Source of the DNA: Patescibacteria group bacterium
GTDB taxonomy: Bacteria; Patescibacteriota; Patescibacteriia; Patescibacteriales; WJLG01
Assembly (NCBI GenBank): GCA_028716485.1
Contig: JAQUPS010000002.1
Coordinates: 43,013-107,012, forward strand
Direction: 5' to 3'
DNA: 64,000 nt
In this document: positions 1 to 28,489 of the stretch, in pieces
How positions within the stretch are numbered: the stretch's first letter is position 1
Layout: each line of letters begins with the position of its first letter
The notes under the pieces: model-generated
Told to the model about the DNA's origin: nothing
The model's database searches: none
Seen by the model: the letters and a program-made list of their open reading frames with translations, nothing else
Program-made: the position numbers and the translations under genes

Positions 1-871
1 GCGGCCGCTTCGCCCGCTTAAATTCTTTAAAATCCGCCTTGACGAAAGCCTTAGTGATCTGCCGCGAACGATCCCGGCGAAAATTAAAACAAATCACCGC
101 GTCATTTTCCTTAATCAAAGCGACCGGCTCGCCGTTATCCGCGGTTAAAATCACCGGCTCCAGATACTCATCGAAAATTCCCCGCTCATATTGGCTGTCG
201 ATCGCTTCATGGGCGTTTTTTTCCGTGATGCCGATGCCGGCGGTCAGGGCTAAGAATGATTTCTCGATTCTATCCCAATTATTATTGCGATCCATGGTGA
301 AATACCGGCCGCTGATAGTGGCGATTTTGCCAAGGCCGATTTCTTTGATTTTATTTTCCAGCATCGTCAAAAATTTCTTGGCGCTTTGCGGGTGCGTGTC
401 GCGGCCGTCGGTAATGGCATGGATAAAAACCTCCTTAACCTTATTATTTTTAGCCATTTCCAAAAGCGCGAACAAATGTTCAATGTGGGAATGCACGGCG
501 CCATCGGAAAGCAAGCCAAGAACATGCAGATTGGAATTGTTTTTTTTCGCCCATTCAAAAGCGGCGAGCAGCGCCTCGTTCTTGAAAAAAGAACCATCGG
601 AAACGGCGGAAGAGATTGTCGGCAAAAATTGAAAAACAATCTGACCCGAACCGATAGTCTGGTGTCCAACTTCGGAATTGCCCCGCACGCCCCAAGGCAA
701 ACCGACCGCCATGCCGGAAGCCTGCAGATAGATTTTCGGGTAATGAGCGTTGAGCTCCTCAATTACCGGCAATTTTGCCTTCACGAATGGATTGCCCTTT
801 TCAATGTCCCACTCGCCCCAGCCATCAAGGATAACCAAAACGATCGGCTTCTTTTTTTTAACATTATCCAT
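1..871 (-). CDS. gpmI: 2,3-bisphosphoglycerate-independent phosphoglycerate mutase, N-terminal part (3' end runs off the window)
   Basis: Absent from the ORF track because it is open at the window edge. Reverse-strand translation from ATG at 869-871 gives MDNVKKKKPIVLVILDGWGEW...GNSEVGHQTIGSGQ...LLSDGAVHSH...AITDGRDT, which are typical iPGM motifs. The + strand ORFs 39..632 and 386..928 are antisense shadows. Confidence 0.85.
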   Translation of the reverse strand, partial: MDNVKKKKPIVLVILDGWGEWDIEKGNPFVKAKLPVIEELNAHYPKIYLQASGMAVGLPWGVRGNSEVGHQTIGSGQIVFQFLPTISSAVSDGSFFKNEALLAAFEWAKKNNSNLHVLGLLSDGAVHSHIEHLFALLEMAKNNKVKEVFIHAITDGRDTHPQSAKKFLTMLENKIKEIGLGKIATISGRYFTMDRNNNWDRIEKSFLALTAGIGITEKNAHEAIDSQYERGIFDEYLEPVILTADNGEPVALIKENDAVICFNFRRDRSRQITKAFVKADFKEFKRAKRP

Positions 872-1063
872 ACAAATATATTAATCAATCTTAGCAATCG
901 CTACATTATTAAATTGTTATATGGCTAAATTGTTAGGCGACAAAGATATCAACTTTCAGCAATGTAACAATTTAACAATTCAACAATTTATCTGTTTGTG
1001 CTATAATACTAACATTAACTTCCTTTATATTTTATCACATAATAATCTTATTTAAAAATCGTT

Positions 1064-2041
1064 ATGCAAAAAGTCCACATTCCCTATACCGTGCCCCGCT
1101 CCAAGCGCGCCGAATATTTAAAGAATTGGAAAATCGCCACCCGCGGCACGGGAAAACTGTTCATGTTCGCCTGCGACCAAAAAGTCGAACACTTGAATGA
1201 CGACTTCGTCGGACCGGGTATCAGTCCCGAAGTCGCGGATCCGGCGCATTATTTCGAGATTGCCAAAAAAGCGCAGATCGGCGTTTTAGGCTCCCAACTC
1301 GGCTTAATCGCCAAATACGCCGACCTCTGCCCGGGAGTTCCTCTGATCATCAAGGCTAATTCCAAAACCAACCTGATCAAGAAAACAGCGCGCGATCCGT
1401 TCAGCAACCGCTGGCTGGCGGTGGAAGATATCGTTAACTTCAAAAAAACCTCCGGCTTGAATATCGTCGGCATCGGCTACACGGTTTATATCGGCAGCGA
1501 ATTCGAATCCGAGTCTTTCGGCCAGGCAGCTCGTATCATCTATAAGGCTCATCAGGAGGGCATGCTGGCAGTCGTTTGGATGTACCCCCGCGGCAAGGCC
1601 GTTAAGAATGAAACAGATGCCCATTTATTGGCCGGCGGCGCCGGAGTCGCGGTATGTTTAGGCGCGGACTTCGTGAAAATCAATTATCCTTATGATAAAC
1701 CGACTGCCGAAACCGCCAAAAAATTCCGCGAAGTGGTGGCGGCGGCGGGACGGACGAAAGTCATTCCCATCGGCGGCGCGAAAATGCCGGAAAAGAAATT
1801 CCTCCAGCAGATCCATAATCAAATCCATCTTGCCGGCACCTCGGGCGTCGCCATCGGCCGCAATATTTTCCAGCGCCCGACCGACGAAGCCATCCGGATG
1901 GCCGATGCCATCGCCGCTGTCGCGCTCTATGATTATTCCGTGGAAAACGCTCATAAAATATTCCTTGGCAAAGCGAAGCTGAACGGCAAGCCCCGGCCAA
2001 GCAGCTCAACACTCAAATCGTTTTTGTCGTTATCGTTCTAA
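1064..2041 (+). CDS. class I fructose-bisphosphate aldolase (DhnA/FbaB, DeoC-LacD-type TIM barrel)
   Basis: 325-aa ORF. It has FACDQKVEH near the N-terminus and DFVKINYP, the Schiff-base Lys context of archaeal-type class I aldolases. A terminator follows. Confidence 0.75.
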   Translation: MQKVHIPYTVPRSKRAEYLKNWKIATRGTGKLFMFACDQKVEHLNDDFVGPGISPEVADPAHYFEIAKKAQIGVLGSQLGLIAKYADLCPGVPLIIKANSKTNLIKKTARDPFSNRWLAVEDIVNFKKTSGLNIVGIGYTVYIGSEFESESFGQAARIIYKAHQEGMLAVVWMYPRGKAVKNETDAHLLAGGAGVAVCLGADFVKINYPYDKPTAETAKKFREVVAAAGRTKVIPIGGAKMPEKKFLQQIHNQIHLAGTSGVAIGRNIFQRPTDEAIRMADAIAAVALYDYSVENAHKIFLGKAKLNGKPRPSSSTLKSFLSLSF

Positions 2042-2052
2042 AAATTATTTAT

Positions 2053-2085
2053 AAAGGCTTCTCTGCTTGGGGAAGCCTTTTTTTG
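2053..2085 (+). terminator. rho-independent terminator of the aldolase gene
   Basis: Stem aaaggcttc / gaagccttt followed by a T-run, 12 nt after the stop codon. Confidence 0.7.
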
Positions 2086-2270
2086 TTGAAAAAAATTTTA
2101 GGCGCAAGGCTTATGGCTCAAGGTCTAAAAGATCAGCAATCTTAGAAATCTTATTAAAAAATTTTCAAATATCTTTGCCACTTTTTTTAGAAAAAAGTGG
2201 CGCAAAAAATCGCGCGCCGGACAAATTTCCTATCACTCCGCTAAGAAACCTAGCAAAATTGCTATACTTG

Positions 2271-2310
2271 CCTCTCACCAATTTTGTTTGATAACAAAAT
2301 TGGTGAGAGG
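2271..2310. repeat. perfect inverted repeat (18-bp arms, 4-nt spacer)
   Basis: cctctcaccaattttgtt-tgat-aacaaaattggtgagagg. It is flanked by a second inverted pair, gcaaaattgc ... gcaattttgc. No T-run follows on either strand. Confidence 0.8.
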
Positions 2311-2581
2311 CTTCGGACAACGCAATTTTGCACGGTTTCCACGCTACGTGATTACGGAAATTTTCCAATGCGCGCTATAAGGAAAAAATAATCCAATTAG
2401 ACCTCCAAGTATCAAAAGAGCTGAAGCGCATTATCGCCTCAGCTCTTTAATAATTTATATGAATTTTTACTTTTTACTTTCGACTTTAATTTTCAGATGC
2501 GCCCCTTTTCGTAACGGGGCTCCGCCACTAAAATTCGCATGTCCCGCATTCGTAGCGCGGATCCGCCCCAGGCGGATAACG

Positions 2582-3769
2582 TTACTTCATCTTCTTCCGA
2601 ATAAATGCCGGGATGCCCAATTCCCCTTCTTCCGATTCTTCGTCCGGCAGTTCTTCCTGCGCCATTTTCACCGGGGAAATTTTGCTTTTCCGCGGCGCGT
2701 CGGCCGTTGAATCCGTCTTGTTCCCGAACCAACCGCGGCTTTTTTCTTCTTTCTCCGCGATAAAACTGTTCGGGGTGTAGGCGGGACGCAGCTGTTTGCC
2801 GGCAAGATCGTGCGCCTGGCCGTCAAAACCGGTGGCCACCACCGTAACTTTTATTTCATCTTTCAATTTATCGTCTATCACCGCGCCGAAAATAATCTTG
2901 GCTTCGGCATCGGCGGAAGCGGTAATAACTTTGGCGGCTTCGGAAACTTCGGTCATACCCAAACTGGGACCGCCGGTGATGGTAAAGACAATGCCGCGGG
3001 CCCCATCAATCGACATATCTAAAAGCGAAGAATTGATCGCCGCCTTGGCCGCTTCAATGGCGCGATTTTCTCCCGAAGCCTGGCCGATACCCATCAAAGC
3101 CGAGCCGGCATTCTGCATCACCGCCCGGACATCGGCGAAATCCACATTGATCAAGCCGGGAATGGTGATAATTTCGGCAATACCCTGCACGCCCTGGCGC
3201 AAGACATCGTCCGCCACCGAGAAAGCTTCCATCAGGGAAGTTTTTTTATCGATAATCTGCAATAATTTATCATTGTTGATAGTGATGATCGTATCAACCT
3301 TGTCGGCCAGTTCGGCAAAACCGCGTTCAGCAATCGCCTTTCTTTGTCCACCTTCAAAAGAAAAAGGCCGGGTGACGACCGCAACGGTAAGCGCGCCCAA
3401 ATCACGGGCGATTTCCGCCACCACCGGCGAAGCTCCCGTGCCGGTGCCGCCGCCCATGCCGCAAGTGATGAAAACCATATCCGAACCTTTCAAAATATCC
3501 CTGATTTCGTTCTGCGATTCTTCCGCCGCCTGGCGCCCCAATTCCGGATTCATGCCCGCGCCCAAACCCCTGGTAACCGATTTGCCGATATGCAATTTGT
3601 CGCCGGCTTTATTGTAATGCAAAGCCTGCACATCGGTATTAATGGCGACAAATTCCACGCCCCTGATTCCTTTGTCGATCATTCTTTGGATGGCGCTTCC
3701 GCCGCCGCCGCCGACCCCGACAACTTTTATCTTGGCGAATGTTTCGGCCAATGGTTTTATTTCGGCCAT
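2582..3769 (-). CDS. ftsZ: cell division GTPase FtsZ
   Basis: 395 aa with the tubulin signature [21 protein letters not shown] and NTDVQAL. The acidic/basic C-terminal tail ends in IPAFIRKK. Confidence 0.97.
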
Positions 3770-3985: not shown

Positions 3986-5248
3986 TCAGGGGGCGAAGCG
4001 GGAAAAAATATCCCTGATTTTTTTATTGGCATCATCCAAAAAATTTCCCAAACCTCTCAAGGCGCCTTTGCCGGATCTTTTAGCCATGAAAGAATTTCCC
4101 CAGATGACCAATCCCAGAGCGGTTAAGTATTTGGAATCATTCACTTTATCAAAAATAATTTCCGCGTTGCGGCAAATGCCCACACTGGCCGGCAAACGTA
4201 ATTTATCTTTGGCAACCTCGATTAATCCCGCCAATTTAGCGCCGCCGCCCGCCAAAACAATGCCGGCCGGCAGCAATCCGGAACGGTCAATCTTTTTCAG
4301 CTGCTCGTCGATGCGCTCAAAAATTTCCTCGGCCCGAGCTTCGATTATTTCCGCGACATATTTTTTGGAGATGATTTTAATATCATCTTCCACCTCTTCT
4401 TCGCGGGCCAGTTCAGTGATATCAACCTCTTCCTTGCCGGAAAAATTCTTGGGCACGGCATTGCCATGCTCGATCTTCACCCGCTCGGCCAAATTGATCG
4501 GGCAGCGCAAACCGATGGCGATATCCGAAGTGATATGTTCCGAACCGATGGGGATAACTGCGGCATGAATCAACTTCCCTTCTTCATAAACCGCCAAAGT
4601 CGTGGTCGAAGCGCCAATACCGGCCACCGCCACGCCCAAATCTTTCTGCTTGGCGCTCAAAACCGCTTCGCCCAAAGCGAGCGAAGATAAAACCAGATCA
4701 TCGATATTCAAACCCGTGCGATAAATCGCCTTGGTCAGATTCTTTATCTGGCTGGTCATTCCCTGCACAATCAAAGCCTCGACTTCCAAACGAATCCCGC
4801 TCATCCCGATCGGGTCTTTGACGTCTTCCTGGTTATCCACAGTGAACTTTATCGGAATGACGTGCAAAATTTCGTAATTCGGCGGCATGCTCAAGGTCCG
4901 CGCCGCTTCAATCGCCCTTTCCACGTCTTCCTGGCTGATTTCGCCGTTATTCTTGCTCACCGCCACCACCCCCTTGCTTTTCTCGCACTTGATATACGGG
5001 TCATTAACGCTCACGTAAACATTGCCAATCGGCAGACCGATCAAACGCTCGGCCTTTTCCAAAAGCGAAGAAATCGAAGACGTGGTGTCATCGATGCTTT
5101 TGACCATTCCCTTGGTAATACCTTCGGATGGCGACGAAATCGCCCCGATTATCTGCAATCGGCCGTCATTTTGCTCTATTCTCTGCCCCACCACCAATCT
5201 AACCTCCGTCGAGCCGATATCCAAACCGACAATTGAATCATCTTTCAT
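3986..5248 (-). CDS. ftsA: cell division protein FtsA (actin-like ATPase)
   Basis: 420 aa with VGLDIGSTEVRLVVG phosphate-1 and GGGAKLAGL motifs. It lies immediately upstream of ftsZ on the same strand. Confidence 0.93.
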   Translation of the reverse strand: MKDDSIVGLDIGSTEVRLVVGQRIEQNDGRLQIIGAISSPSEGITKGMVKSIDDTTSSISSLLEKAERLIGLPIGNVYVSVNDPYIKCEKSKGVVAVSKNNGEISQEDVERAIEAARTLSMPPNYEILHVIPIKFTVDNQEDVKDPIGMSGIRLEVEALIVQGMTSQIKNLTKAIYRTGLNIDDLVLSSLALGEAVLSAKQKDLGVAVAGIGASTTTLAVYEEGKLIHAAVIPIGSEHITSDIAIGLRCPINLAERVKIEHGNAVPKNFSGKEEVDITELAREEEVEDDIKIISKKYVAEIIEARAEEIFERIDEQLKKIDRSGLLPAGIVLAGGGAKLAGLIEVAKDKLRLPASVGICRNAEIIFDKVNDSKYLTALGLVIWGNSFMAKRSGKGALRGLGNFLDDANKKIRDIFSRFAP

Positions 5249-5348
5249 AAAAACATTTAGTGAAAATTGATAAATTTGTTAATATAATGCTGATATTATA
5301 AATTATACGCTAATAATGCGCGTTCCACAAGTCAAATTAATTTTTTGA

Positions 5349-5726
5349 TTATGATGTAATTCTTCTTTTTGCAAACAAAATTGCCTCCCCTAAAATAATT
5401 GCGATGAGAGAGGCACAGGCATCCACTATTAGGGGTCCGAAAGATTGTATTACTAAAAGTAATAATGATTCCAATCCTATAACTATGGCAAAAATCCAAT
5501 ATCTGAATTTACCGGCAAAAAGAATTATCCCCAAAGTTAAAATAAATGCCGAGCTTAAAAAGAATCCTTCAAAATATTCAGGATGCCCAAAACCAACATC
5601 CGCCCAGCTACCAGATCTTATATTAGTTCCTGTAATCATTTCATACAGAGTCGCGAAAGATGGGGTTAAAAAAAAAGTTAAAACAACAAATAAAAATAAA
5701 ATTAAAACATTTCCTTTTTTAAGCAT
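5349..5726 (-). CDS. small polytopic membrane protein
   Basis: 125 aa with about four hydrophobic spans. It is the third small membrane gene in the tandem module series downstream of the giant protein. Confidence 0.5.
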   Translation of the reverse strand: MLKKGNVLILFLFVVLTFFLTPSFATLYEMITGTNIRSGSWADVGFGHPEYFEGFFLSSAFILTLGIILFAGKFRYWIFAIVIGLESLLLLVIQSFGPLIVDACASLIAIILGEAILFAKRRITS

Positions 5727-5730
5727 AAAA

Positions 5731-5964
5731 TTATAAATTACTTAATAAATAATTAATATCTGCTTTTATCATATCATAACCGGCCTGGTTTATCCCATTC
5801 TTTTCTTTTATTTTATCCAGAGTTTTCAAAATAAAATCTAAATTTAGCACTATTGCTTTTTGCTTTGCCTCGCTATTTTTATCCAGTAATTTATTTAAAG
5901 CGTCAATAATTTTTTTCTTGGCTGTGGGATTTATTTTTTGGTTATTTTCAGCCTCTTTGACCAA
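5731..5964 (-). CDS. degenerate copy of the C-terminal helical module of the 1398-aa protein
   Basis: The 77-aa ORF ends in NQAGYDMIKADINYLLSNL. Compare WINQAGYNIIREDIKYLLNKI at the C-terminus of 7049..11245. Confidence 0.4.
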   Translation of the reverse strand: MVKEAENNQKINPTAKKKIIDALNKLLDKNSEAKQKAIVLNLDFILKTLDKIKEKNGINQAGYDMIKADINYLLSNL

Positions 5965-6047
5965 CTTTTTAATTACTTCTCTCCCTTTCGCGAGCAGTTC
6001 AAGCCAGAAACCAAAATAGCTGAATTAAAACAAATAACCCGGCTTTT

Positions 6048-6281
6048 TTAACCCAAAGGAATTAAATTGGTGTTACCATTATATAAATTTATTATAGCGA
6101 AAACTAATAAAATAAAATAAAATAAATGGCGTTTTTTATCGCCTAACTTAATCAGCAAAAATGGAAATATGAAAATAAAATAAACAATGTAGATAAAAAT
6201 ATCAAACAAATGAAAGACAAATAACAAAAGAAAAGGAATTAAAAATAACAAGAAAATTATAACTTCTTTGTACTTTTTCAT
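6048..6281 (-). CDS. small membrane protein (paralog of 6762..7043)
   Basis: 77 aa and very hydrophobic. It shares FIFIFP and the C-terminal TNLIPLG with FIFIFP ... TNFIPFG in the paralog. Confidence 0.5.
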   Translation of the reverse strand: MKKYKEVIIFLLFLIPFLLLFVFHLFDIFIYIVYFIFIFPFLLIKLGDKKRHLFYFILLVFAIINLYNGNTNLIPLG

Positions 6282-6285
6282 AAAT

Positions 6286-6765
6286 TTATATTTTACTTAA
6301 TAAATATTTTATATCCTCCCTAATTATATTATACCCTGCCTGATTAATCCATTTTACCCGCAAGAATACATCCAGCTTGGTTAAAACCAAGTTATATTTT
6401 AATTTGATTACGACTTGATTAATTTTGTTCAGTCTATATTCGAACCTGTCAAATGTTTTTCCGATTTTGGCATCGCACCAGGCCCGATTTTTATGCTTCA
6501 AACATTGCGCCATTGCCTTGTCCCGCATTATTTTTTCTTTATCGATTCTCTGGCCGTATTTTTCCTGGAAATTTTTAATATCAGTCAGATCGTTGATTAA
6601 GCTATTCTTTGCTTCAACCTTTGTGATCATTTTCTCGTCGTAGGCGCGACTGACATCAGCGATTGTTCCGTTAACGTCGGTGATAAAAGAAAAATTTACT
6701 ATTTGCTCGGCTTGATCGCCGGCTGAATAATTTTTACCGTGCTTAGCTATTGTATTTTTTATCAA
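6286..6765 (-). CDS. stand-alone copy of the about 145-aa C-terminal module of the giant secreted protein
   Basis: From GDQAEQ onward it is almost identical to the last about 145 aa of 7049..11245. Shared strings include AYDEKMITKVEAKNSLIN, QCLKHKN.AWCDAKIG and WINQAGYNIIREDIKYLL. Confidence 0.6.
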   Translation of the reverse strand: MIKNTIAKHGKNYSAGDQAEQIVNFSFITDVNGTIADVSRAYDEKMITKVEAKNSLINDLTDIKNFQEKYGQRIDKEKIMRDKAMAQCLKHKNRAWCDAKIGKTFDRFEYRLNKINQVVIKLKYNLVLTKLDVFLRVKWINQAGYNIIREDIKYLLSKI

Positions 6766-7043
6766 CCAAATGGTATAAAATTTGTTTTCTCGCTAAAAAA
6801 CATTGAAATAACATACATAAATAGGCTCAGATAAAAAAATATAAACAAAAATATATTTACCGTTTTTGAAGCTTTATTTTTTTTGTAAAAAAAGATAAAA
6901 ATAATCGGAAAAATAAAAATAAAGTAAAAGAAGTAAAAAGCTATGTCTATAAAAGTAGTAAACACCAAAAGCGAAACAGGCAATAAAAATAATATTGCCC
7001 AAAAGCTGAATATCTTAAATACCAATTTTTTTTTCTCTGTCAT
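6762..7043 (-). CDS. small membrane protein
   Basis: 93 aa and hydrophobic. Its stop overlaps the next gene's start. It is a paralog of 6048..6281. Confidence 0.55.
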   Translation of the reverse strand: MTEKKKLVFKIFSFWAILFLLPVSLLVFTTFIDIAFYFFYFIFIFPIIFIFFYKKNKASKTVNIFLFIFFYLSLFMYVISMFFSEKTNFIPFG

Positions 7044-7048
7044 ACTTT

Positions 7049-10000
7049 TTATATTTTATTTAATAAATATTTTATATCCTCCCTAATTATATTATACCCT
7101 GCCTGATTAATCCATTTTACCCGCAAGAATACATCCAGCTTGGTTAAAATCAGATTATATTTTAATTTGATTAGAGCTTGATTAACTTTATTTAGCTGAT
7201 ATTCGAATCTATCGAATATTTTTCCGATTTTGGCATCGCACCAAGCTTGATTTTTATGCTTCAAACATTGCGCCATGGCCTTGTCCCGCATTATTTTTTC
7301 TTTATCGATTCTCTGGCCGTATTTTTCCTGGAAATTTTTAATATCAGTCAGATTGTTGATTAAGCTATTCTTTGCTTCAACCTTTGTGATCATTTTCTCG
7401 TCGTAGGCGCGGTTAACATCGGCAATTGTACCGTCAATATCGGTAATTATGGAAAAATTAACTGTTTGCTCGGCTTGATCGCCGGCCAAATCTTGAATGG
7501 TGATTTTAACCTGATGCGAGCCAAGGCCTTGTAGGAATAGATCAATTAAATTTGTATTGACAAGATTGCCATCCAAATAAATTTTGGCGGTAGCTGTGTC
7601 AACGCCGGAAAAATTATCAACGGCAAAATACTCGACATCCAGCGTGTCGTTGCGCAATATTTCTTGCCCTTCCTGCGGCAATAAAACGCTGATGGTTGGT
7701 TTGGTTTTATCTATCGCGAAAGTTATTTCCTTATTTTCTTCGCGATTTCCAGCTCGATCAGTCGAGGAATATAAAATAGTCGCAGTTCCATCTTGGGAAA
7801 CCGTAAATTCTCCCGTATAATTAGTCCAAATTTTTCCGCCATCCAAACTGTATTCCGTTTTCAGAACGCCGGAATTATCATCGGCGGCCGCGAGATTAAT
7901 TTTCACAGCAGAAACGTAATAATCATTGTTCCCTTTTATCCCGACAATATTTATAGTTGTGGCTGGCTTAACCAGATCGTTCATCTCATTGCCAGCCAAA
8001 ACGGCATCGGGGGTTTTATTTTCCTCAAAAACTCCATCGCCATTTTCATCAACTTTTACAACTTGACTTTCTTGACCGGGAATTAAATTAATTTGTGTTC
8101 TGGTTAGATCGGATTGGAGCGGAATGCTGTTAAAATATTCCGTATTGGTGTATTGGTTGTTTTCTACTGTTTTTATCGCCACTTCCAGAGTGCCTGTTCC
8201 GACCGCCTCGCCGGTTATCCGATAATTACCGCTCGCGGGCAAAAAAGCAAATTTATTGCCGTCAACAATATCATACTGAACGCCGGGGACATTGTTTTCG
8301 ATATCGCCATTGGCGGTCGGCCCGGTATGATTGCCTTGATCGTCATAAATATTCATCTCCACCGGGCAATGATATTCAATGACTTTTCCGGAAATTCCGC
8401 AAATACTGTCATCGGCCTTGAAATTTTGGGATTGCGCAAACGGATATTCCGCTTCCTGATTATTTAAAACCAAATAAACAAAATCTTTCACTTCCTGCGC
8501 GCCGGGAATCTGCGAATGGTCTTTTCCAGAAAGATAATATTTTTTATCGCCAAAATAATCAGCGCTCTTCAAGGGTACTGTGCCGTCGCCGTCAACATAT
8601 TCTAAGCCGTATTCATCCCATAAAAATGCTTTTTTGCCTAAATTATCAATTTTGCCGATAGTAGGTGTGCCGCACCCGGAAATGGTATAGGAATTATTGA
8701 TTTTCACATCATCTATCTGTGAATGTAAAAGCGAATTTTTATTTATGAAATATGATGATATTCCATTATTACTGGCAATAAGATACGAGAGCGAATCATT
8801 ATAATTTAATTCTCCTTGCAAACTCGTGCCGCCGATATTTGAATTATTGTATAAATAATGTCCATAGCCGTCGCCAATGAGATTAAAATATTCTGGGCTA
8901 GGCAGCAGTTGATAGATCGAGGGCATTTGCAGGGAAATTTCTTGAATTTTACTTGGACTTAAAAAATAATAGCCTTTTAAATTTATGCCCAAATTATCCC
9001 CATATTCCAAAATCTTTGCCGCTTTTGGCGCGCCCAAATTCGGTGTGGCAATGTCGATAAATTTATCAATAGAATCCTGCCCGAATTTGGCGGCATAATC
9101 TTTTACCACCAGTCCGCCCATACTGTGAGCGACAATATCAACTTTATCCGAATTTGTTTTTTGTTTAACCTCTTCTATTAAGCATTTTAAGGTTGTGGTT
9201 GATTCGCAGGACGTATTATCACCAGCAACTTGATCTAAATCCAAACGCCAATCATATGGAAAAACAAATAAATCTTTATTTTCTTCATAACCGTTGGCTT
9301 TTAGATAATTAATCAGTCCGCCATAAAAATCCATATAGAAACCTAATCCCCCAACCTTTCTTATGACGTCGGTAGTAAAAATATTTTTTATGGAATTACC
9401 ACTCCCATCCATTTTTAATTCATTCAACTGCTCATCAACGGGGTCGGCGATATAAGTTGCCGGATCCGGCCAAATTTCTTTATTAAGCAATAATTCCTTT
9501 TCATCAAGAGAGCTCCCCAAAATCCCCGGCACGATGATTACCGGATTATGCGCGAGCGGTGGCGGGCCATAGGTGATATAAAGGTCGGGGTTTTTTACTC
9601 CCAGGTAACCCTGCTTGTTATAAGGTTCGGTCTGATCATAATCATATTGATCGCGCATGACCAAAGAAAAATTATTTCCGATCTGGGAATTAAGCCAGGA
9701 AACTCCGGAAGAATTAAAATTGAAAGTAAGGGTATTGGAACCGCCGTAAAAATAATAACTTACGTCTGAAAGGGAGGAGGCGGAGCCTTGATAACCGCCG
9801 AAAGAATCATCGGCATTGGATTGAGGAAATAATTCGCGATCAATATGAGGTGGATTGTCATTATCATCATTAGTTTCAGCCCGCAAATAAGCGCTTTTGA
9901 CAACATTGCCGGCAGGAATCAAATCGGCCAGATTGAACAAATAAGACGGACGAAATATTCTTCCCCCGCTCCCCTGATATTGCGAGTTCGAGAAACAATT

Positions 10001-11245
10001 ACCTGCTTCTCCGTTAAACGCGCAATCATCGGTATCGGCTTTCCAGTAGCAATAATTATCATTTCCAGTATGGTTTAATTGCGTAGCGCGCGGCCAAGTG
10101 ACTGACTTATACCAGCTGCAGGAAAGAAAAAAATTCAAATTTTTCATTTCATCCGGGCGGATTAGGATTTGATGATCGGCTGAAGCCAGAATCACAAAAT
10201 CAGTATTTATGGCGGGGTCGCTTATTGTTTTCCACACCGAGGCGTTGCCTTGCGAATCCATTGCCCTGGCCTGCCAGTGATACCGGCCGGGTAAGAGATT
10301 TGATACATTAACCGAAGCCATCTGGCCGGAAGCGAAGAAACTGCTGAATGCGGTGGGCGTGCCGGTGAACGAATTTTCTGACGGCTGAACTTCAACCTGC
10401 AACTGCGCTTGATCGCCCGTCGGGCTTGTTGGCATCGCCCGAAATACGACGGCGTTGTCCGTAATATTAACCCCCTCATCTATGATTGTTGCCCCGCCTG
10501 ATTTGAACTGCCCGAGATTTGAAAGAGCTGGAATCGGATTTGGGGCGCTGTCATCAAAAAATTTCAGATCGTCAAAATACAATGATACGGCAGACGCTTC
10601 CAGATAGACGCTATTGAATGGTTGCGTTGCCGGATTTAAGCCGGAAAGATGCCATCCTGAATCAAATGAACCTCCAATGTCGCCATTAATAACAATACGG
10701 CACGTATTATCGGTTTGATTCCAGTATAAATTCATAACATACCATTCATCTTGATTATAATGGCCCAAATCGAGCGAAGGAGCGCCAGCAGGATTGCTTG
10801 AATCAAAAAAGAAATTCAAGTGGTGCTTTGCGGGCCAATCCGAAACCAAAAAACATCCCAAAGGACCAGGGTGGCCAACAGACTCCTGATACATTATGCC
10901 AATCTCTTGATAAGGATTAGAACCGGAACCAATTTTAAAAGTAATCTCAAAATGCCCTAAATCAGGAATACCGCCCCAAGGCGACGAAAACATATAATAC
11001 ATCGCGTACATTGAATCATTGGGCGGAACAATATCGCCACCATAAGGAGGGCTGATGTATTCCGATCCTTGCGTATGCGAATAAATAGTGCCACGCCAAT
11101 AATTCGTCAAAAAATTCAACGAGGAATGTCCCGAATAGAAATCAAAATTTTCATCAACTGGCGTTGATGCTAAAACAGGTTTTTGAGAAGTGAAAAAGGC
11201 GACGGAGAGAGAAAGAAAAAATAGAATAAAAAATTTATTTTTCAT
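7049..11245 (-). CDS. giant secreted multidomain protein with an LCAT/PGAP1-like alpha/beta-hydrolase (lipase/acyltransferase) core and Ig-like repeats
   Basis: 1398 aa with N-terminal signal peptide MKNKFFILFFLSLSVAFF. The core carries VIIVPGILGSSL, FPYDWRLD and a VDIVAHSMGGLVV nucleophile elbow (coding about 9115-9140). Later segments such as YSLDGGKIWTNYTGEF ... STDRAGNRE resemble bacterial Ig/OmpL47-type domains. Confidence 0.8.
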   Translation of the reverse strand: MKNKFFILFFLSLSVAFFTSQKPVLASTPVDENFDFYSGHSSLNFLTNYWRGTIYSHTQGSEYISPPYGGDIVPPNDSMYAMYYMFSSPWGGIPDLGHFEITFKIGSGSNPYQEIGIMYQESVGHPGPLGCFLVSDWPAKHHLNFFFDSSNPAGAPSLDLGHYNQDEWYVMNLYWNQTDNTCRIVINGDIGGSFDSGWHLSGLNPATQPFNSVYLEASAVSLYFDDLKFFDDSAPNPIPALSNLGQFKSGGATIIDEGVNITDNAVVFRAMPTSPTGDQAQLQVEVQPSENSFTGTPTAFSSFFASGQMASVNVSNLLPGRYHWQARAMDSQGNASVWKTISDPAINTDFVILASADHQILIRPDEMKNLNFFLSCSWYKSVTWPRATQLNHTGNDNYCYWKADTDDCAFNGEAGNCFSNSQYQGSGGRIFRPSYLFNLADLIPAGNVVKSAYLRAETNDDNDNPPHIDRELFPQSNADDSFGGYQGSASSLSDVSYYFYGGSNTLTFNFNSSGVSWLNSQIGNNFSLVMRDQYDYDQTEPYNKQGYLGVKNPDLYITYGPPPLAHNPVIIVPGILGSSLDEKELLLNKEIWPDPATYIADPVDEQLNELKMDGSGNSIKNIFTTDVIRKVGGLGFYMDFYGGLINYLKANGYEENKDLFVFPYDWRLDLDQVAGDNTSCESTTTLKCLIEEVKQKTNSDKVDIVAHSMGGLVVKDYAAKFGQDSIDKFIDIATPNLGAPKAAKILEYGDNLGINLKGYYFLSPSKIQEISLQMPSIYQLLPSPEYFNLIGDGYGHYLYNNSNIGGTSLQGELNYNDSLSYLIASNNGISSYFINKNSLLHSQIDDVKINNSYTISGCGTPTIGKIDNLGKKAFLWDEYGLEYVDGDGTVPLKSADYFGDKKYYLSGKDHSQIPGAQEVKDFVYLVLNNQEAEYPFAQSQNFKADDSICGISGKVIEYHCPVEMNIYDDQGNHTGPTANGDIENNVPGVQYDIVDGNKFAFLPASGNYRITGEAVGTGTLEVAIKTVENNQYTNTEYFNSIPLQSDLTRTQINLIPGQESQVVKVDENGDGVFEENKTPDAVLAGNEMNDLVKPATTINIVGIKGNNDYYVSAVKINLAAADDNSGVLKTEYSLDGGKIWTNYTGEFTVSQDGTATILYSSTDRAGNREENKEITFAIDKTKPTISVLLPQEGQEILRNDTLDVEYFAVDNFSGVDTATAKIYLDGNLVNTNLIDLFLQGLGSHQVKITIQDLAGDQAEQTVNFSIITDIDGTIADVNRAYDEKMITKVEAKNSLINNLTDIKNFQEKYGQRIDKEKIMRDKAMAQCLKHKNQAWCDAKIGKIFDRFEYQLNKVNQALIKLKYNLILTKLDVFLRVKWINQAGYNIIREDIKYLLNKI

Positions 11246-11336
11246 AGCGGCAAAAGGGCGAAAAACCCTTTTTAATCGGGTTATATTCCATCTTTATCAT
11301 ACCATATTCTTATCCTCTTACCAACGTCGAATCCGC

Positions 11337-12149
11337 TTAAAACATCCCCGTATACCAGCCGATAATCCGCTGGCCCCAGAATAAAGTAATCAGCAGAGCC
11401 GGGGCTAAAAAAACGCCGAGGGGGACTTTGGAGGACCAGTCTTTTTTGCCGAAAATTACCAGACCGACGCCGATTATCGAGCCGATAAAATAGGTCAGCA
11501 GGATGGCTAAAATCAATTCATCATAACGGCCGGTGGCGAATCCCAGGAGGATTCCCAGGCGGATATCGCCGCCGCCGACCCACTTGCCTTGCGAAACTAA
11601 AAATTGCAGGAGAAAAAAACCGCCGCCGATTATGGCGCAGATTAATAATGTCAGCCAATTATAGCCTAAAAATATATTGAGTAAAAAAATCAGCAAAGCG
11701 GCAGGCAGAGCGACTTTATCAGGAATGAGATACCAGCGCAGATCATAAATAAAAATTGTGGTTAAAGCGAAAATTATCAGCCAATCCTTGATTAAAGATA
11801 AAATAAATTTATTATCGGCGATAAGGTAAAGATTGTCGGACAGGCTTGCTTCACCGAGCAAATTTTTGGCCAGCAGATAAAAAGACAGGGCAAAAAGGCA
11901 GGCAGTGGAAAATTCCACCAGCGGATATTGCCAAGAGATTTTTTTACCGCAACAGCGCCCGCGTCCGCGCAAAAAAAGAAAGCTTAGGACGGGAATATTA
12001 TCGAACCAGGCGATCAGCTTGCGACATTTAGGGCAATAAGACCTGTCCCACAAGGTCTCGTTTTCATGCAGACGCCAGACAAAACAATTGGTAAAACTGC
12101 CGATGATGGCGCCGAACAAAAACGAAACGAAGATAAAATAATAAATCAT
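11337..12149 (-). CDS. pilD: prepilin peptidase (A24 family)
   Basis: 270 aa with the CPKCRKLIAWFDNIPVLSFLFLRGRGRCC zinc-ribbon segment and polytopic membrane topology. Confidence 0.9.
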   Translation of the reverse strand: MIYYFIFVSFLFGAIIGSFTNCFVWRLHENETLWDRSYCPKCRKLIAWFDNIPVLSFLFLRGRGRCCGKKISWQYPLVEFSTACLFALSFYLLAKNLLGEASLSDNLYLIADNKFILSLIKDWLIIFALTTIFIYDLRWYLIPDKVALPAALLIFLLNIFLGYNWLTLLICAIIGGGFFLLQFLVSQGKWVGGGDIRLGILLGFATGRYDELILAILLTYFIGSIIGVGLVIFGKKDWSSKVPLGVFLAPALLITLFWGQRIIGWYTGMF

Positions 12150-12235: not shown

Positions 12236-14551
12236 CTATTTAATCTTGTTCTTCAAGCCATCAAGCAAGCTTTGCGCTTCCTGATTACCCGGATTCAGTT
12301 CCAAGACTTGATTAAAATAATCGATGGCCGACGCGCTATCCCCTTTCTCTTTATACAATAAACCGATAGCCAGCGGCCAGGAATAATCTTGCGGAGCAAG
12401 CTGATAGCCCTTTTTATTATACCATATGGCTTTGTCCAGATCTTTCCGCTGATAATAAATATCGGCGATTTTTTTATACGCCTGCGGATAGCTGGAATTC
12501 ACGGCAACGATCTTTTCATAATAGCTTAGCGCGCTGTCCGCCTCATTTTTTTGCGCATAGGCCGTTCCTAAAAGATTATAATAGCTGATGAGCTGGGTCT
12601 CGATTTCCGGACGATGCGAAAAATAACCGCGGCTGGCCATTGCGGCTAAGGGCAAAGTTTCGAGTCCCTGATTGGCAATATCGATGGCCGCGTCATTACG
12701 CCCCATTTTAAGCTCAAAATCGGCCCAATCCTCGTAGACAAGGCTGATTTGCGGATATTTTTCCGCTAAGGCGGTGAAGTCCTTTTCCGCCGCCGCGACA
12801 TAAGCCTTATCAGAGCCTTGCGCCAGCAGCGCTTCCACATCAGCTTTGCTTTTAGCGAAAGAAAATAAATTTTCCGCGGGTATCGACTCTAAATAAAGCA
12901 GCATGTTGCCCTTCAATTGATCCTGTTCATTCTTGGGCAATTTATCAAAACAAAGCAAGCCGCCGGCAAGATATTCGCCCTGATAAAACAAGCTGTTTCC
13001 CCCACTCCAGGCAATGGCCTTGGAAATATCATTAAGCGCGTCCGGACAATCGCCATTAATGGAAATAACCGCCCGCATAAAATAACGATCCGCCAACAAC
13101 GGCCGGAGGTTGAAATAAAAAATAAAAATGGCGATAAAAATAAAAAAAGAAATAAAAATGGCGGCGCGGGAAAAAACGGTCAGAGATATTTTTATCTCCT
13201 TTCGCGGAGCGGCGCGGGAAAGCGAAAAAATCAACAAACCGAGAATCAGATAAAAATATAAATACTCGGGAATGTCCGAAAAATTAAATAAATTATTGAC
13301 AAAATATCCGGCCAAAGCAAGGACACAGGCGGCGGCCAGCCAATAATTTTCATCGCGCATAGCAGTTTTGAAAAAACGCCGGGCCAAGACAGCCAAATAA
13401 ATAAATAACACGAGATAAATGGCCAGGCCGACAAGGCCGAAAGACAAAACAATATCCAAGAATACATTATGCGCCCGATCCGGCCAGGTGTTTATTTTTT
13501 CATCAAGCGGCCAGCTGGTTTGATAATGCCGGGCGAAAACGTCCGAAAGAGAATCCGGCCCGTAGCCGAAAAACAGGCGGAAAGAGCTTTCCTCTTTTAT
13601 TTCGCTTGCCGCATATTGCCAGATATTCAACCGAGCTCTAATCGACCCCTGGCTAAAATCAAAAACAGATTCCAGCCGGGATTTTAAAGAGTAGTCAAGC
13701 TGAGCCGGCCGGGGAGAAAAGGAAAAAAAGGAAGAGGCGAAAATACCCGCCGCGATAGAAAAAATCAGCAAGCCGAACGCGATTTTCTTCCGCCCTTTTA
13801 AAAACAGAAAAAACAGCAGGGCTAAAAATATTTCCGCGGCCAAGCCCAGCCAAGCCGAACGGCTATAAGTGAGGAGTAGGCAAAAAATCTGCCCCGCCAG
13901 CAGAATGGCAATTAATGACCTGGTCAAAACGCGGCGCGCCCCAAAAACCAGCGCGTAAACCGAAAAAGGGATAATTAATATCAGCCAATGAGCGAAAAAA
14001 TTCGGCTGTCCCAAAGTGGAAAAAATCCGGCCGGTTTCGGCCCATTTTATCAGATCAAGCCCGAAAAACTGGATTAAGCCATAGCCGCAGGCGAGCAAGG
14101 AAGAAAAAATCATGGCATAGACAAAACGCTTAGCGATAGAAAGACTTTGCAGATTGAAGATCAATAACAAAAAAAATAACAAATAAAAAATCAGGGTGAA
14201 AAATCCGTTTTGGCGCTCATAATTGCCCCAGAAACTAAAGGCCGGAATCGGCGCAAAGATAGCGGAAACGAGCCAGGAACAGGCTAACAAGGCAAAAATT
14301 ACCAAAAAATAACGGTTATAGCGGTATTCCAGCTGGCCAGCCAAAAATATCTTCGCCAGAAAAAACAGGCCGGCAAGGGAAACGAAAATCCGGATGATTA
14401 TTACCTTATCCAGCGCGAAAACATTGTAAGTTCCATGGAAAAAAGCGAAAACCAGCGGAATCCAAAAAACTAAAAACAAAAAAATCCAGTCAATGGCTGT
14501 CTGGCAAAAATTAATGATCTTTTCCCGATTGAATGAATAAAGCATAGTCAA
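12236..14551 (-). CDS. O-antigen ligase-like (Wzy_C) polytopic membrane protein with C-terminal TPR repeats
   Basis: 771 aa. It has about 12 TM spans including SRSAWLGL and a long loop typical of Wzy_C/PglL-type proteins. The C-terminal repeats are TPR-like (AIDYFNQVLELNPGNQEA). Confidence 0.75.
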   Translation of the reverse strand: MTMLYSFNREKIINFCQTAIDWIFLFLVFWIPLVFAFFHGTYNVFALDKVIIIRIFVSLAGLFFLAKIFLAGQLEYRYNRYFLVIFALLACSWLVSAIFAPIPAFSFWGNYERQNGFFTLIFYLLFFLLLIFNLQSLSIAKRFVYAMIFSSLLACGYGLIQFFGLDLIKWAETGRIFSTLGQPNFFAHWLILIIPFSVYALVFGARRVLTRSLIAILLAGQIFCLLLTYSRSAWLGLAAEIFLALLFFLFLKGRKKIAFGLLIFSIAAGIFASSFFSFSPRPAQLDYSLKSRLESVFDFSQGSIRARLNIWQYAASEIKEESSFRLFFGYGPDSLSDVFARHYQTSWPLDEKINTWPDRAHNVFLDIVLSFGLVGLAIYLVLFIYLAVLARRFFKTAMRDENYWLAAACVLALAGYFVNNLFNFSDIPEYLYFYLILGLLIFSLSRAAPRKEIKISLTVFSRAAIFISFFIFIAIFIFYFNLRPLLADRYFMRAVISINGDCPDALNDISKAIAWSGGNSLFYQGEYLAGGLLCFDKLPKNEQDQLKGNMLLYLESIPAENLFSFAKSKADVEALLAQGSDKAYVAAAEKDFTALAEKYPQISLVYEDWADFELKMGRNDAAIDIANQGLETLPLAAMASRGYFSHRPEIETQLISYYNLLGTAYAQKNEADSALSYYEKIVAVNSSYPQAYKKIADIYYQRKDLDKAIWYNKKGYQLAPQDYSWPLAIGLLYKEKGDSASAIDYFNQVLELNPGNQEAQSLLDGLKNKIK

Positions 14552-17832: not shown

Positions 17833-18243
17833 TTATTTTTTAATTGCCCTTTCTATCACTTCCTTTATCTTATCAATTACTTCGGCAAAGGTGAAATTAT
17901 CGCGGACAATATATTCGGCGGCGCCGGCGGCCTGGCCGGCGGCGATATCATTCTCGGACGACAAATCGGTCAAAATCACCGCCGGGGTTGCCGCTATTTC
18001 CGGATGCTTTTTCATCTCCTTGATAAAACCGAAATCTTCGGCTTTGGGCAAACTGATATCCAGAACGATCAAATCCGGCTTTTCTTTTAAGGCCATCTCC
18101 AAACCATGATCCTCGTCGCTCTCCACGATCACCTCAAAACCGGCTTCCTTCAGTTTGGTAACATAAAACTCGATAAAATCCGGATAATCTTCCAGAAGCA
18201 GAATCTTTAATTTGCCTTCATTGCCATTCATTTCTTTAATCAT
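17833..18243 (-). CDS. stand-alone response-regulator receiver domain (CheY-like)
   Basis: KILLLEDYPDF, the phospho-acceptor context LIVLDISLP, and a K in ILTD...; there is no output domain. The start was chosen at MIKEM; the track ORF starts at 18288. Confidence 0.85.
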   Translation of the reverse strand: MIKEMNGNEGKLKILLLEDYPDFIEFYVTKLKEAGFEVIVESDEDHGLEMALKEKPDLIVLDISLPKAEDFGFIKEMKKHPEIAATPAVILTDLSSENDIAAGQAAGAAEYIVRDNFTFAEVIDKIKEVIERAIKK

Positions 18244-18288
18244 AATTAATATATTGTGGATACTGCTAACTTCAAAAATCCGAAGCAT

Positions 18289-23631: not shown

Positions 23632-24864
23632 ATGATGAACTTTTTCGCTAAATACCAACGCGTCTTTATTATTATCGGATTTCTGATTTTGGTCGCTGCT
23701 TTGGGCTATCTGCTTTATTTTCTTTTTGTCAAACCGACTCTGGCTCCGGCTCCGGCGCCAGGCCCGACTGCTACTACCACTACCGGAAAACTTCCCCCGT
23801 CCGGCACTGGCGCGCCGGTTACTCCGATTGCCACTACCGGCCCGGGCATTATCCCAAGCGCGGCGAATAAGCCGGCCGCCATTGCTTCGGGCGGCATCAC
23901 CCGAGCGCCGGCCATCAATGACAACACAGCGGTTAATCCGACTTTAAGCGCCAACGGTTCCGGCATCCAATATTATAATCAAAACGACGGAAAATTTTAT
24001 CGGGTTGACGCCAGCGGCAATGCCAGCGCGCTTTCCGACCAGGTGTTTTACAACGTCAGCAATGTAGTTTGGGCTCCGCAAAAAGACAAAGCGATTATTG
24101 AATATCCAGACAACTCCAAGATTCTTTATAATTTCGATACTGAAAAACAAATCACCTTGCCCAGCCATTGGCAGGATTTTGATTTTTCCGCCAACGGTTC
24201 CCAAATCGTGCTGAAGAGCATGAATGTCGACACGGAAAATAATTATCTGGCCGTGGCCAATGATGACGGCACGGGCGGTAAATTAATCGAGCAGATCGGC
24301 GCCAATGCCGACACAGTTTACGATTCCTGGTCGCCCAATAACCAGACCATCGCCATGTACACGCAGGGGGTGGATTTGGACCGCCAGGAAGTTTTCTTTG
24401 TCGGCCAAAACGGCGAAAATTTCAAATCAACGATTGTGGAAGGCCGCGGCTTCGAACCGCAATGGTCAACGGCCGGCGATCAGCTGGCCTACAGCGTTTA
24501 TTCCACGGCCACTGATTTGAAGCCGGAATTATGGGCGGTTGACGCGCAAGGCGATTCGATCGGCGCCAACCGGCGGGATCTGGGAATACAAACCTGGGCT
24601 TCCAAATGCGTTTTCGCCAATGACACGACGATGTATTGCGGCGTGCCGCAGAGCCTGGACACCGGCGCCGGCCTTTTCCCGGAAATGGCGCAAAATACCG
24701 CGGACAATCTTTATCAAATCAACATCCAGACCGGAGAGAAAAAATTGATCGCCGTTCCGGACGGCAATTATAATATGTCCAATCTCGTGGTTGCCAACAA
24801 CGGCAACTCGCTGTATTTCCAGGACAGCAATACGAAACTTGTGCATAAAGTTCAATTGAAATAG
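23632..24864 (+). CDS. membrane-anchored TolB-like beta-propeller (PD40-repeat) protein
   Basis: 410 aa. It has an N-terminal TM span, then a Pro/Thr-rich linker, then repeated motifs of the SWSPNNQTIAMY / PQWSTAGDQLAYSV type. Confidence 0.55.
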   Translation: MMNFFAKYQRVFIIIGFLILVAALGYLLYFLFVKPTLAPAPAPGPTATTTTGKLPPSGTGAPVTPIATTGPGIIPSAANKPAAIASGGITRAPAINDNTAVNPTLSANGSGIQYYNQNDGKFYRVDASGNASALSDQVFYNVSNVVWAPQKDKAIIEYPDNSKILYNFDTEKQITLPSHWQDFDFSANGSQIVLKSMNVDTENNYLAVANDDGTGGKLIEQIGANADTVYDSWSPNNQTIAMYTQGVDLDRQEVFFVGQNGENFKSTIVEGRGFEPQWSTAGDQLAYSVYSTATDLKPELWAVDAQGDSIGANRRDLGIQTWASKCVFANDTTMYCGVPQSLDTGAGLFPEMAQNTADNLYQINIQTGEKKLIAVPDGNYNMSNLVVANNGNSLYFQDSNTKLVHKVQLK

Positions 24865-26921: not shown

Positions 26922-27595
26922 GGCTTTACAAAATGATCATAAACACAAAGAACGAATGATTCGGCTATTTCCGAAAGATTTTTAATAGGTAGTTGTTTTT
27001 TTGAAAGAAGTTTAGCTCTTCTAAGTTCAGGGAATGATTTGCAAAGCTTTTCGCCACATACCTTAGAATCTAACTCGAGATCACCGTGAAGATATAATAT
27101 TCCATATTGCAACTCACGCAGCCATCTGCTGTATTTTATTTCCCAAAATTCCACATCTTTATCGTTTAAATATACGGCCCTGCAACCCTGTGCTAAATCA
27201 ACGGCACGCTTGTAAATAGAATTTACAGTTATTTTTTCTTCTTTGATATTGCGCAGACAATCTTCGCCCCAGAGTAAAGCATTTCGCTGTTTAATCCAGA
27301 CAAAAAATGTCGGCGGCCTGAAAATGTGCCAGAGATTAAGAAACTCACTCTTAAAAACAATATTAATATCAAGCTTAAATTTTCTTTCCTTGGTACGAAT
27401 TATTTTAATTTTTTTAAAAAAGGCTTGACGATCTTTAATATCCTTAACTATAAATAAAACATCAATGTCACTTTTCTTATGAAAATTATTCGTTAGTATG
27501 CTTCCGTAAAGATAGGCTGATTTTATGCACTTAAATTTTTTAAAATTAACGCACAAATTTTTCTTAACATCTTCAATTAATAAAGTGTTGGGCAT
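26918..27595 (-). CDS. Pol-beta-superfamily nucleotidyltransferase-domain protein
   Basis: YLYGSILTNNFHKKSDIDVLFIV fits the G-S ... D-x-D NTase signature. There is a 4-nt overlap with the next gene. Confidence 0.65.
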   Translation of the reverse strand: MPNTLLIEDVKKNLCVNFKKFKCIKSAYLYGSILTNNFHKKSDIDVLFIVKDIKDRQAFFKKIKIIRTKERKFKLDINIVFKSEFLNLWHIFRPPTFFVWIKQRNALLWGEDCLRNIKEEKITVNSIYKRAVDLAQGCRAVYLNDKDVEFWEIKYSRWLRELQYGILYLHGDLELDSKVCGEKLCKSFPELRRAKLLSKKQLPIKNLSEIAESFVLCVYDHFVKP

Positions 27596-28481: not shown

Positions 28482-28489
28482 AAATTTAT

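Follow-up and report, generated by a model that had tools for sequence, protein, structure and literature searches.

The enzymes closest to the protein described here are human lysosomal phospholipase A2, LPLA2 (PLA2G15; structure 4x90), and lecithin:cholesterol acyltransferase, LCAT (structures 5txf and 4xwg), members of Pfam family PF02450 that act at lipid interfaces and yield a lysolipid together with a free or transferred acyl chain. Other systems that invite comparison are Tle4 (TplE; structure 4r1d), an antibacterial phospholipase of the Pseudomonas aeruginosa type VI secretion system (T6SS) with Tli4 as its immunity protein; the "reverse" lipase toxins TslA and TslM of the Staphylococcus aureus type VII secretion system (T7SS) (PMC10730906, PMC13560087); and two enzymes with the minimal alpha/beta core, Bacillus subtilis LipA (Lipase_2) and the polyhydroxybutyrate depolymerase PhaZ7. 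We analyzed a 64,000-nucleotide (nt) stretch of a Patescibacteria group bacterium (GCA_028716485.1, contig JAQUPS010000002.1, positions 43,013 to 107,012), henceforth referred to as the window, which encodes a 1398-amino-acid (aa) LCAT-like lipase. With moderate confidence, we interpret the lipase as a Sec-exported modular interfacial phospholipase that is encoded together with a cognate membrane partner in an accessory block, and whose position beside type IV pilus genes is incidental.

The lipase open reading frame (ORF) starts with ATG and occupies positions 7049..11245, as given in a preliminary description of this DNA; its strand is minus. We detected a significant Pfam match to LCAT (PF02450, E 7.7e-24, 85.1 bits against a cut-off of 21), which agrees with the family proposed in that description and answers its call for a Hidden Markov Model (HMM) search. 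The PGAP1 membership proposed alongside did not hold up, as PF07819 scored 20.5 bits against a cut-off of 24.3 and matched residues 694-741 only. All other alpha/beta-hydrolase families of Pfam were below threshold, and GPI inositol-deacylase structures reached only E ~5e-4 when a profile of the lipase family was compared with Protein Data Bank (PDB) sequences. The three motifs on which the early assignment relied were recovered (PGILGS at residue 573, DWRLD at residue 665 and AHSMGG at residue 706), and two further active-site motifs were found, DGDGTV at residue 885 and KDHSQ at residue 908. The predicted catalytic triad, Ser708 (AHSMGG), Asp887 (GDGTVP) and His910, is invariant in an alignment of 36 sequences, as is the PYDWR motif. 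Its codons lie on the minus strand at 9122-9124 (Ser), 8585-8587 (Asp) and 8516-8518 (His). The catalytic core had been placed at 8545-9553, an interval that spans the catalytic Ser and Asp but ends just short of the His codon; on the basis of the Pfam match, the structure prediction, Foldseek and the profile comparison with LPLA2, we assign the domain to residues 564-960 (8366..9556, minus strand). Because the LCAT match is significant and the triad is complete, neither of the two outcomes that the preliminary description had named as fatal to its proposal (no family match, or an incomplete triad) was encountered.

The structure prediction points the same way. An AlphaFold2 (AF2) model of the catalytic domain, based on the 36-sequence alignment, reached a predicted local distance difference test score (pLDDT) of 91.7 and a predicted template modelling score (pTM) of 0.93. 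Foldseek comparison of this model with the PDB ranked LPLA2 first (4x90, E 1.6e-19, template modelling score (TM-score) 0.69/0.75, ~407 columns), and the alignments to 4x90 and 4x92, with TM-scores of 0.69-0.76 over ~407 columns, span the family-specific subdomains. LCAT structures were the runners-up (E 3e-17 to 1e-13), and Tle4, the phospholipase effector of the T6SS, came after them (4r1d, E 9e-10). PhaZ7 and the usual bacterial lipases ranked far lower, with TM-scores of 0.2-0.4, and all lipases other than LPLA2 and LCAT remained at or below 0.56. The family profile, searched against PDB sequences, matched LPLA2 over its whole length (chain residues 5-368, E 3.4e-28) and Tle4 at E 2.4e-21. 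In the alignment of the profile with LPLA2, AHSMG falls on AHSMG, gdGDgTVPlkSA falls on GDGDGTVNLKSA, and the family His falls on the EH of LPLA2; the corresponding LPLA2 residues are presumably Ser165, Asp327 and His359. The model shows the whole predicted LCAT/LPLA2 fold, in which an alpha/beta core carries two inserted subdomains that correspond to the membrane-binding insertion and the cap or lid.

The likeness to LPLA2 and LCAT extends over the whole domain. It includes the insertions after the PGxLGxxL strand and in the cap region, and the PYDWR motif, the AHSMG motif, the Asp of GDGDGTV and the downstream His are common to both sides of the comparison. The lipase differs from these enzymes in being bacterial, in its sequence (~20% identity), in its Cys pattern, in belonging to a modular exoprotein of 1398 aa that also has beta-sandwich, OmpL47/Big and FIMAH-like parts, and in the small gene for a protein with three transmembrane helices that accompanies it. 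The resemblance to Tle4 lies in the catalytic profile and in the predicted arrangement of a membrane-attacking lipase beside a protective partner gene, although the lipase is exported by Sec with no T6SS and its fold similarity to Tle4 (TM-score 0.45-0.56) is below that to LPLA2. Tli4 is a soluble periplasmic protein, whereas the partner of the lipase has three transmembrane helices. With LipA and PhaZ7 the lipase shares the AHSMG nucleophile elbow and the minimal alpha/beta core, but only ~50-90 residues align, and the LCAT-type subdomains are present only in the lipase.

The catalytic domain is embedded in a long series of modules, all given here with their minus-strand positions. Residues 1-27 (11165..11245; MKNK, then FFILFFLSLSVAFF, ending in VLA/ST) form the signal peptide that had been noticed earlier. 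In a hydropathy scan, residues 5-20 were the only hydrophobic segment of the lipase, and the peptide, with its basic n-region and VLA/ST c-region, is of the standard Sec, cleavable type without a lipobox. The following region, residues 28-237 (10535..11164), may be jelly-roll/LamG-like, judging from an eye comparison with the N-terminus of the relative P0126. An Ig-like domain at residues 238-353 (10187..10534) is 56% identical to residues 237-351 of the relative P0001 and has weak PKD/Ig matches. It is followed by a Cys-containing insertion peculiar to this lipase (residues 354-563, 9557..10186), which is missing in P0001 and P0126, where the Ig-like domain runs straight into the catalytic domain. 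Neither residues 28-237 nor residues 354-563 had any family match in Pfam or any homologue detected by phmmer among 147 relatives. An AF2 model of residues 28-565 (538 residues, 2-sequence alignment) was of low confidence (pLDDT 32), and the Ig-like domain was the sole part of it to reach a pLDDT of ~50-78.

Downstream of the catalytic domain, residues 961-1095 (7961..8365) form a family-specific beta-sandwich that has no Pfam family and is present in 144 out of the 147 top family representatives on which our architecture counts are based. An OmpL47-type barrel (residues 1110-1178; NCBIfam NF047446, E 1.4e-23), found in 88 of these representatives, is followed by a Big_13/Big_7 Ig-like domain at residues 1183-1270, in which Pfam matched Big_7 at residues 1183-1232 (E 2.6e-8) and also Big_13; the two modules together occupy 7436..7918 and account for the Ig-like repeats that had been predicted. 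The last 128 residues (1271-1398, 7052..7435) form a divergent FIMAH-like helical tail with a conserved Cys pair (C1327/C1336). A helical tail is found at the extreme C-terminus in 26 of the 147 relatives. We compared the family tails with the FIMAH family PF22888 and obtained sub-threshold matches for 7 out of 22 (best E 1e-4). The tail of the lipase itself had no PF22888 match, and a diverged copy at 5731-5964 covered the whole profile with 17.4 bits against a threshold of 24.8 (E 0.0068). There are conserved Cys pairs in three places, catalytic loop, beta-sandwich and tail, which fits an extracytoplasmic protein. The N-terminal modules vary even among close relatives, with Kelch-like repeats in P0128 and DUF1080 in P0001; those of other relatives include Beta_helix, Laminin_G_3, legume-lectin and CarboxypepD_reg. 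L090, a 70% identical relative, shares nothing of the N-terminal region of the lipase.

A second gene accompanies the lipase. It encodes a 93-aa protein (6762..7043, minus strand), starts 5 nt past the lipase stop and belongs to a conserved partner family. The protein has three hydrophobic helices, and its N-terminus and second loop carry basic residues, from which we infer an N-in/C-out topology that would leave only ~5 and ~11 residues exposed outside. With 5 nt between them, the lipase and its partner are translationally close-coupled. To assess how regularly such a gene occurs, we defined a partner as an ORF of 70-130 aa with at least two transmembrane segments that starts no more than 80 nt downstream of an LCAT-like gene, and took as the control all remaining ORFs in those loci with a length of 250 aa or more. 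Among 71 evaluable family loci, a partner ORF follows the lipase gene in 57, compared with 4 of the 356 control ORFs (Fisher p 2.5e-52). The conserved partner of the lipase is this small transmembrane ORF. A different candidate, the neighbouring ORF at 6286, was rejected, as it is a duplicate of the lipase tail and its tblastn matches are the homologues' own tails.

Most of these small transmembrane ORFs (43 out of 65, including the two of the window) form one phmmer-connected family. Of the 5945 ORFs of the window and the loci, 62 were matched by an HMM of the partner family, all of these on the same strand as an LCAT domain and 0.5-2.7 kb downstream of it. The family has no Pfam match, and its database members are unnamed Patescibacterial proteins. 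When we looked up four partner homologues in reverse, three were encoded directly after an LCAT-domain gene (~1100-1165 aa), and the fourth, in L087, directly after a lipase-homologous fragment detected by tblastn. Some loci have 2-5 divergent partner paralogues in tandem behind one LCAT-like gene, among them L064, L073, L060, L039, L037, L053 and L014. No adjacent partner was found for the lipase homologues from outside the candidate phyla radiation (CPR), in Clostridiaceae and Roseiflexaceae. As in effector-immunity pairs, the partner is a small, adjacent, cognate gene that is family-specific and often arrayed, and its tight specificity and tandem arrays make it resemble immunity genes. The downstream gene does not have the character of a Lif-type foldase: the partners, at 77-125 aa, consist almost entirely of three transmembrane helices and match nothing in Pfam.

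In the window, the tail of the lipase and its partner are the first of three tandem units on the minus strand (5349-7490). Every unit begins with a FIMAH-like tail that ends in a TAA stop, and a small transmembrane ORF with an ATG start follows 4-5 nt later. The second unit begins with an orphan copy of the lipase tail (6286..6765, TTG start; 93% nt identity over 300 nt and 89-91% aa identity), which may be a fragment. A second partner paralogue of 77 aa (6048..6281) starts 4 nt past the stop of this copy and is 56% identical to the second transmembrane gene of L087. In the third unit, a diverged FIMAH-like fragment of 77 aa (5731..5964), 39% identical to the final ~70 aa of the tail, is followed after 4 nt by a 125-aa transmembrane protein (5349..5726), which was missed by the family HMM and may be a diverged partner. 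L087, a 76% identical relative, has a lipase followed by two adjacent transmembrane genes with no tail copy between them, which suggests that the orphan tail is a recent duplication or a recombination remnant. We note that homologous recombination between the tail copies would remove the first transmembrane gene. The three-unit layout recalls arrays of orphan toxin-tip plus immunity modules; as the tail is conserved and not hypervariable, we did not file the locus as a polymorphic toxin. By description, TslA and TslM are similar in having a lipase followed by a C-terminal helical domain and several downstream immunity-type genes. The helical domain of TslA is an LXG-like T7SS targeting signal, whereas the lipase has a Sec signal peptide and a FIMAH-like tail.

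We surveyed the extent of the family using the catalytic domain (residues 555-960) as the query, because the full-length query returned only 5 matches, its word index being swamped by the Ig-like parts. The domain query returned 369 word-index matches, mostly labelled "alpha/beta hydrolase [Patescibacteria group bacterium]", and an exhaustive HMMER scan found 7463 cluster representatives at E ≤ 1e-3, 557 of them at E ≤ 1e-30. There were 460 relatives in GTDB species genomes, and the best 80 of these 460 are nearly all from Patescibacteria metagenome-assembled genomes (MAGs), comprising Parcubacteria/Paceibacterota, Falkowbacteria, Magasanikbacteria, Nomurabacteria, Komeilibacteria and others. 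In several genomes the lipase family is represented twice. The window itself also belongs to a Patescibacteria MAG, as exact look-ups of its FtsZ, PilB, PilT and a DEAD helicase led to entries between MDD5527494.1 and MDD5527524.1. A Patescibacteria-type gene pair was also seen under non-CPR record names, in L006, L016, L022, L027, L029, L037 and L038 ("uncultured Gammaproteobacteria") and in L007 ("Methanoregula sp."); the likely cause is that MAGs were mis-binned or mislabelled. The fold of the catalytic domain is a known one, of which this domain is a new member, and the domain already carries database labels (PF02450; "alpha/beta hydrolase"). We found nothing relevant on LCAT/PF02450 in Patescibacteria in the available literature, and the Patescibacteria-specific variant, with its fixed beta-sandwich, swappable N-termini, FIMAH-like tail and near-obligatory, often multiplied partner with three transmembrane helices, appears to be undescribed.

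The preliminary description had set the lipase next to type IV pilus genes, and the adjacency itself is real. The prepilin peptidase gene pilD (11337..12149, minus strand; Pfam A24_N_bact and Peptidase_A24), the final gene of the pilus string, lies 91 nt upstream of the lipase on the same strand. Read along the minus strand, the order is pilM, two or three pilN/O-like ORFs, pilB, a response regulator, pilT, pilC, a pilin gene, a Wzy_C+TPR gene, pilD and the lipase, then the small ORFs, ftsA (3986..5248, minus strand; directly after pilD in the gene tables of relatives) and ftsZ. We compared the window with a close relative, L096 (GCA_028707065.1; ~80% nt identity over the region, PilT at least 90% identical), in which the order comFC, pilM and so on, pilB, response regulator, pilT, pilC, pilin, Wzy/TPR, pilD, ftsA, ftsZ and later deoC is that of the window. 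The sole difference in order is that pilD and ftsA are separated in L096 by a gap of 166 bp (L096 16352-16517), with no lipase and no counterpart of window 5316-11371: in a blastn comparison, the L096 alignment to the window ends at 11372 and resumes at 5315. This delimits a variable block of 6.06 kb (5316..11371) that holds the lipase and the small transmembrane/tail modules. Its G+C content (GC) is 0.29-0.41 (0.29 in the transmembrane/tail modules), compared with 0.45-0.49 in the flanks. No direct or inverted repeats of at least 9 nt were found at the block borders, which gives no evidence for a transposon-type element.

Co-location with pilus genes was assessed across the family by tblastn of all pil proteins of the window against 84 family loci, with up to 10 kb of flank each. 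A pilus cluster was present in only one of the 84, L013, a more distant relative. There, at 174-3547, an LCAT-like gene of its own (1011 aa) and a 106-aa transmembrane partner lie between pilM and pilN, and pilD adjoins ftsA; this pair marks a further site of insertion, independent of that in the window, in the conserved pil-ftsA string that both share. The adjacency of pilD and ftsA in both L096 and L013 indicates that this junction is ancestral and that the 6-kb block of the window is an insertion. There were no pilus genes near the lipase in four loci examined by Pfam gene table, nor in three loci from the partner-gene look-ups, and a scan of metagenomes for close relatives yielded four short contigs only, with no flanking pil genes. 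Including the window, 2 of ~85 family loci lie inside a ~12-kb pilus cluster, which is approximately the chance rate for a ~1-Mb genome, the usual size in CPR bacteria. Co-location at the level of chance is no evidence of function, and the placement of the lipase beside the pilus genes is incidental. A promoter and terminator scan stayed at background level and does not decide whether the lipase and pilD are co-transcribed.

Several features of the surrounding DNA were recorded along the way. In the 91-nt spacer between pilD and the lipase, just upstream of the lipase ATG, a short hairpin (AAAAGGG-TTTTTCG-CCCTTTT, 11251-11272) may act as a weak terminator that sets the lipase apart from the pil transcript. 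The Wzy_C (O-antigen-ligase-like) and TPR protein of 771 aa (12236-14551, minus strand), encoded between the pilin gene and pilD and kept in L096, may glycosylate or otherwise modify the pilin. The stand-alone response-regulator receiver gene between pilB and pilT (17833-18288, minus strand) is kept in L013 and L096. Elsewhere in the window, two stretches have low GC (0.34-0.39). One, at 26000-30200, carries nucleotidyltransferase, PHP, APH/choline-kinase-like and methyltransferase genes; the other, at 44000-56000, encodes a cluster of three radical-SAM/SPASM proteins, methyltransferases, an HD protein and an ADH, and has a strongly negative GC skew. Three ORFs of 653, 484 and 410 aa (42022-43983, 53851-55305 and 23632-24864, respectively) remained without a Pfam family at the thresholds applied.

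How the lipase might serve its host cell has to be seen against what is known of lipids in this group. Patescibacteria have tiny cells and are mostly unable to make their own membrane lipids. CPR bacteria have been proposed to take lysolipids from neighbours (PMC7242380), secreted phospholipases have been proposed for the action of CPR bacteria on hosts (PMC8080830), and according to a 2024 perspective no mechanism of lipid uptake or breakdown has been identified in Patescibacteria (PMC11665869). The interpretation as an exported phospholipase with a membrane partner fits all three statements. The preliminary description had raised the idea that a surface phospholipase/acyltransferase coupled to the type IV pilus harvests or remodels host lipids for a lipid-auxotrophic episymbiont. 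An LPLA2/LCAT-type enzyme would yield exactly the lysolipids that CPR bacteria are reported to obtain from neighbours (PMC7242380), could transacylate as well, and would supply machinery where none is known for lipid acquisition (PMC11665869). The lipase follows pilD after 91 nt in the same direction, and L013 likewise holds an LCAT-plus-partner pair in its pilus gene string. That pair, however, sits at another junction (pilM/pilN), L096 has the identical pilus-ftsAZ synteny without a lipase gene, and 83 of the 84 loci lack a nearby pilus cluster by tblastn, as do the gene-table and later loci, in line with chance expectation. The functional tie to the pilus machinery is thus not upheld, and we regard the pilus-coupled proposal as unlikely. 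For the auxotrophy that it presupposes, a scan of ~55 ORFs of the window revealed no lipid-synthesis gene, a result from 64 kb that is uninformative on the genome as a whole.

Two further explanations leave the pilus aside. The lipase and its partner could be a toxin-immunity pair for interbacterial antagonism, in which the lipase kills or lyses competitors or hosts, the transmembrane proteins confer immunity and nutrition is a by-product at most. The profile likeness to Tle4 (E 2.4e-21; Foldseek E 9e-10), the strictly adjacent small partner with its arrays of 2-5 divergent paralogues, the orphan tail-plus-transmembrane modules of the window, the accessory, indel-like and low-GC nature of the block, and the variable N-terminal "targeting" modules (DUF1080, Laminin_G_3, Beta_helix, lectin, Kelch) all speak for such a pair. 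It is nonetheless doubtful as a full account: the catalytic and tail domains lack the hypervariability of polymorphic toxin tips, export is by Sec only with no dedicated secretion system, and a protein with three transmembrane helices and nearly no exposed surface is an odd immunity protein for an enzyme toxin. This explanation overlaps the one that we favour and differs from it only in the physiological payoff. The lipase could instead be an extracellular esterase for substrates other than membranes, such as a PhaZ7-like polyhydroxyalkanoate depolymerase, a triacylglycerol lipase, a cutinase or a cell-wall/teichoic-acid deacylase, whose binding modules target polymers. Weak matches to PhaZ7 (NCBIfam 27.8 bits; profile E 7e-6) and to class-2 and Pseudomonas-type lipases, which share the AHSMG lipase box, as well as the carbohydrate- and surface-binding-type accessory modules of relatives, would agree with this. 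These matches are limited to the nucleophile elbow (~50 residues) or to TM-scores of 0.23-0.4, whereas LPLA2 and LCAT align over ~400 columns, family-specific subdomains among them, with TM-scores of 0.69-0.76. Although it is the leading alternative on biochemical grounds, a role as polymer or triglyceride esterase becomes less likely because the fold matches over the entire domain, and a dedicated membrane partner would be hard to explain for a polymer esterase. We consider this option very improbable.

The exported phospholipase with a cognate membrane partner thus remains our preferred interpretation, and its inferred part draws on the likeness to LPLA2, LCAT and Tle4. Judging from its fold, the lipase, whether released or retained on the cell, would act at a lipid interface outside the producer cell, on glycerophospholipids of a host or neighbour, and acyl chains would be cleaved, to give a lysolipid and a fatty acid, or transferred. 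The variable N-terminal modules would supply targeting. Most likely, the partner with its three transmembrane helices would either shield the producer's own single membrane or dock the enzyme on it. Several observations weigh against this interpretation. The substrate assignment comes from the modelled fold alone, the Pfam LCAT match spans only positions 69-204 of the 392-position profile, and the identity of the catalytic domain to LPLA2 and LCAT is ~20%. About 20% of the family loci are without a partner. A partner with only a ~5-residue loop and a ~11-residue tail outside would offer little surface for neutralising a 150-kDa enzyme. The known phospholipase immunity proteins (Tli, TilA) are soluble or lipoproteins, none of them with three transmembrane helices, and the immunity proteins of TslA and TslM are not known to be of that type either.

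Whatever its precise substrate, the lipase stands for a very large branch of the LCAT/LPLA2 fold that is dominated by CPR members, with a full active site, a secretion signal, swappable N-termini and a previously unannotated partner with three transmembrane helices, and a tempting assignment of the lipase to the pilus machinery is corrected. Harvesting of host lipids by the lipase is plausible; the payoff may be feeding, killing or both. A bolder proposal, which we hold to be improbable, is that the LCAT-like exoenzyme and its partner are the missing lipid-acquisition device of Patescibacteria: acyl chains or lysolipids would be stripped from the host, and the partner would receive or insert them, or shield the cell's own bilayer. 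If true, it would account for the abundance of lysolipids in the membranes of CPR cells that lack lipid synthesis. The locus in any case offers a concrete two-gene candidate for how Patescibacteria may attack or harvest the membrane lipids of other cells.

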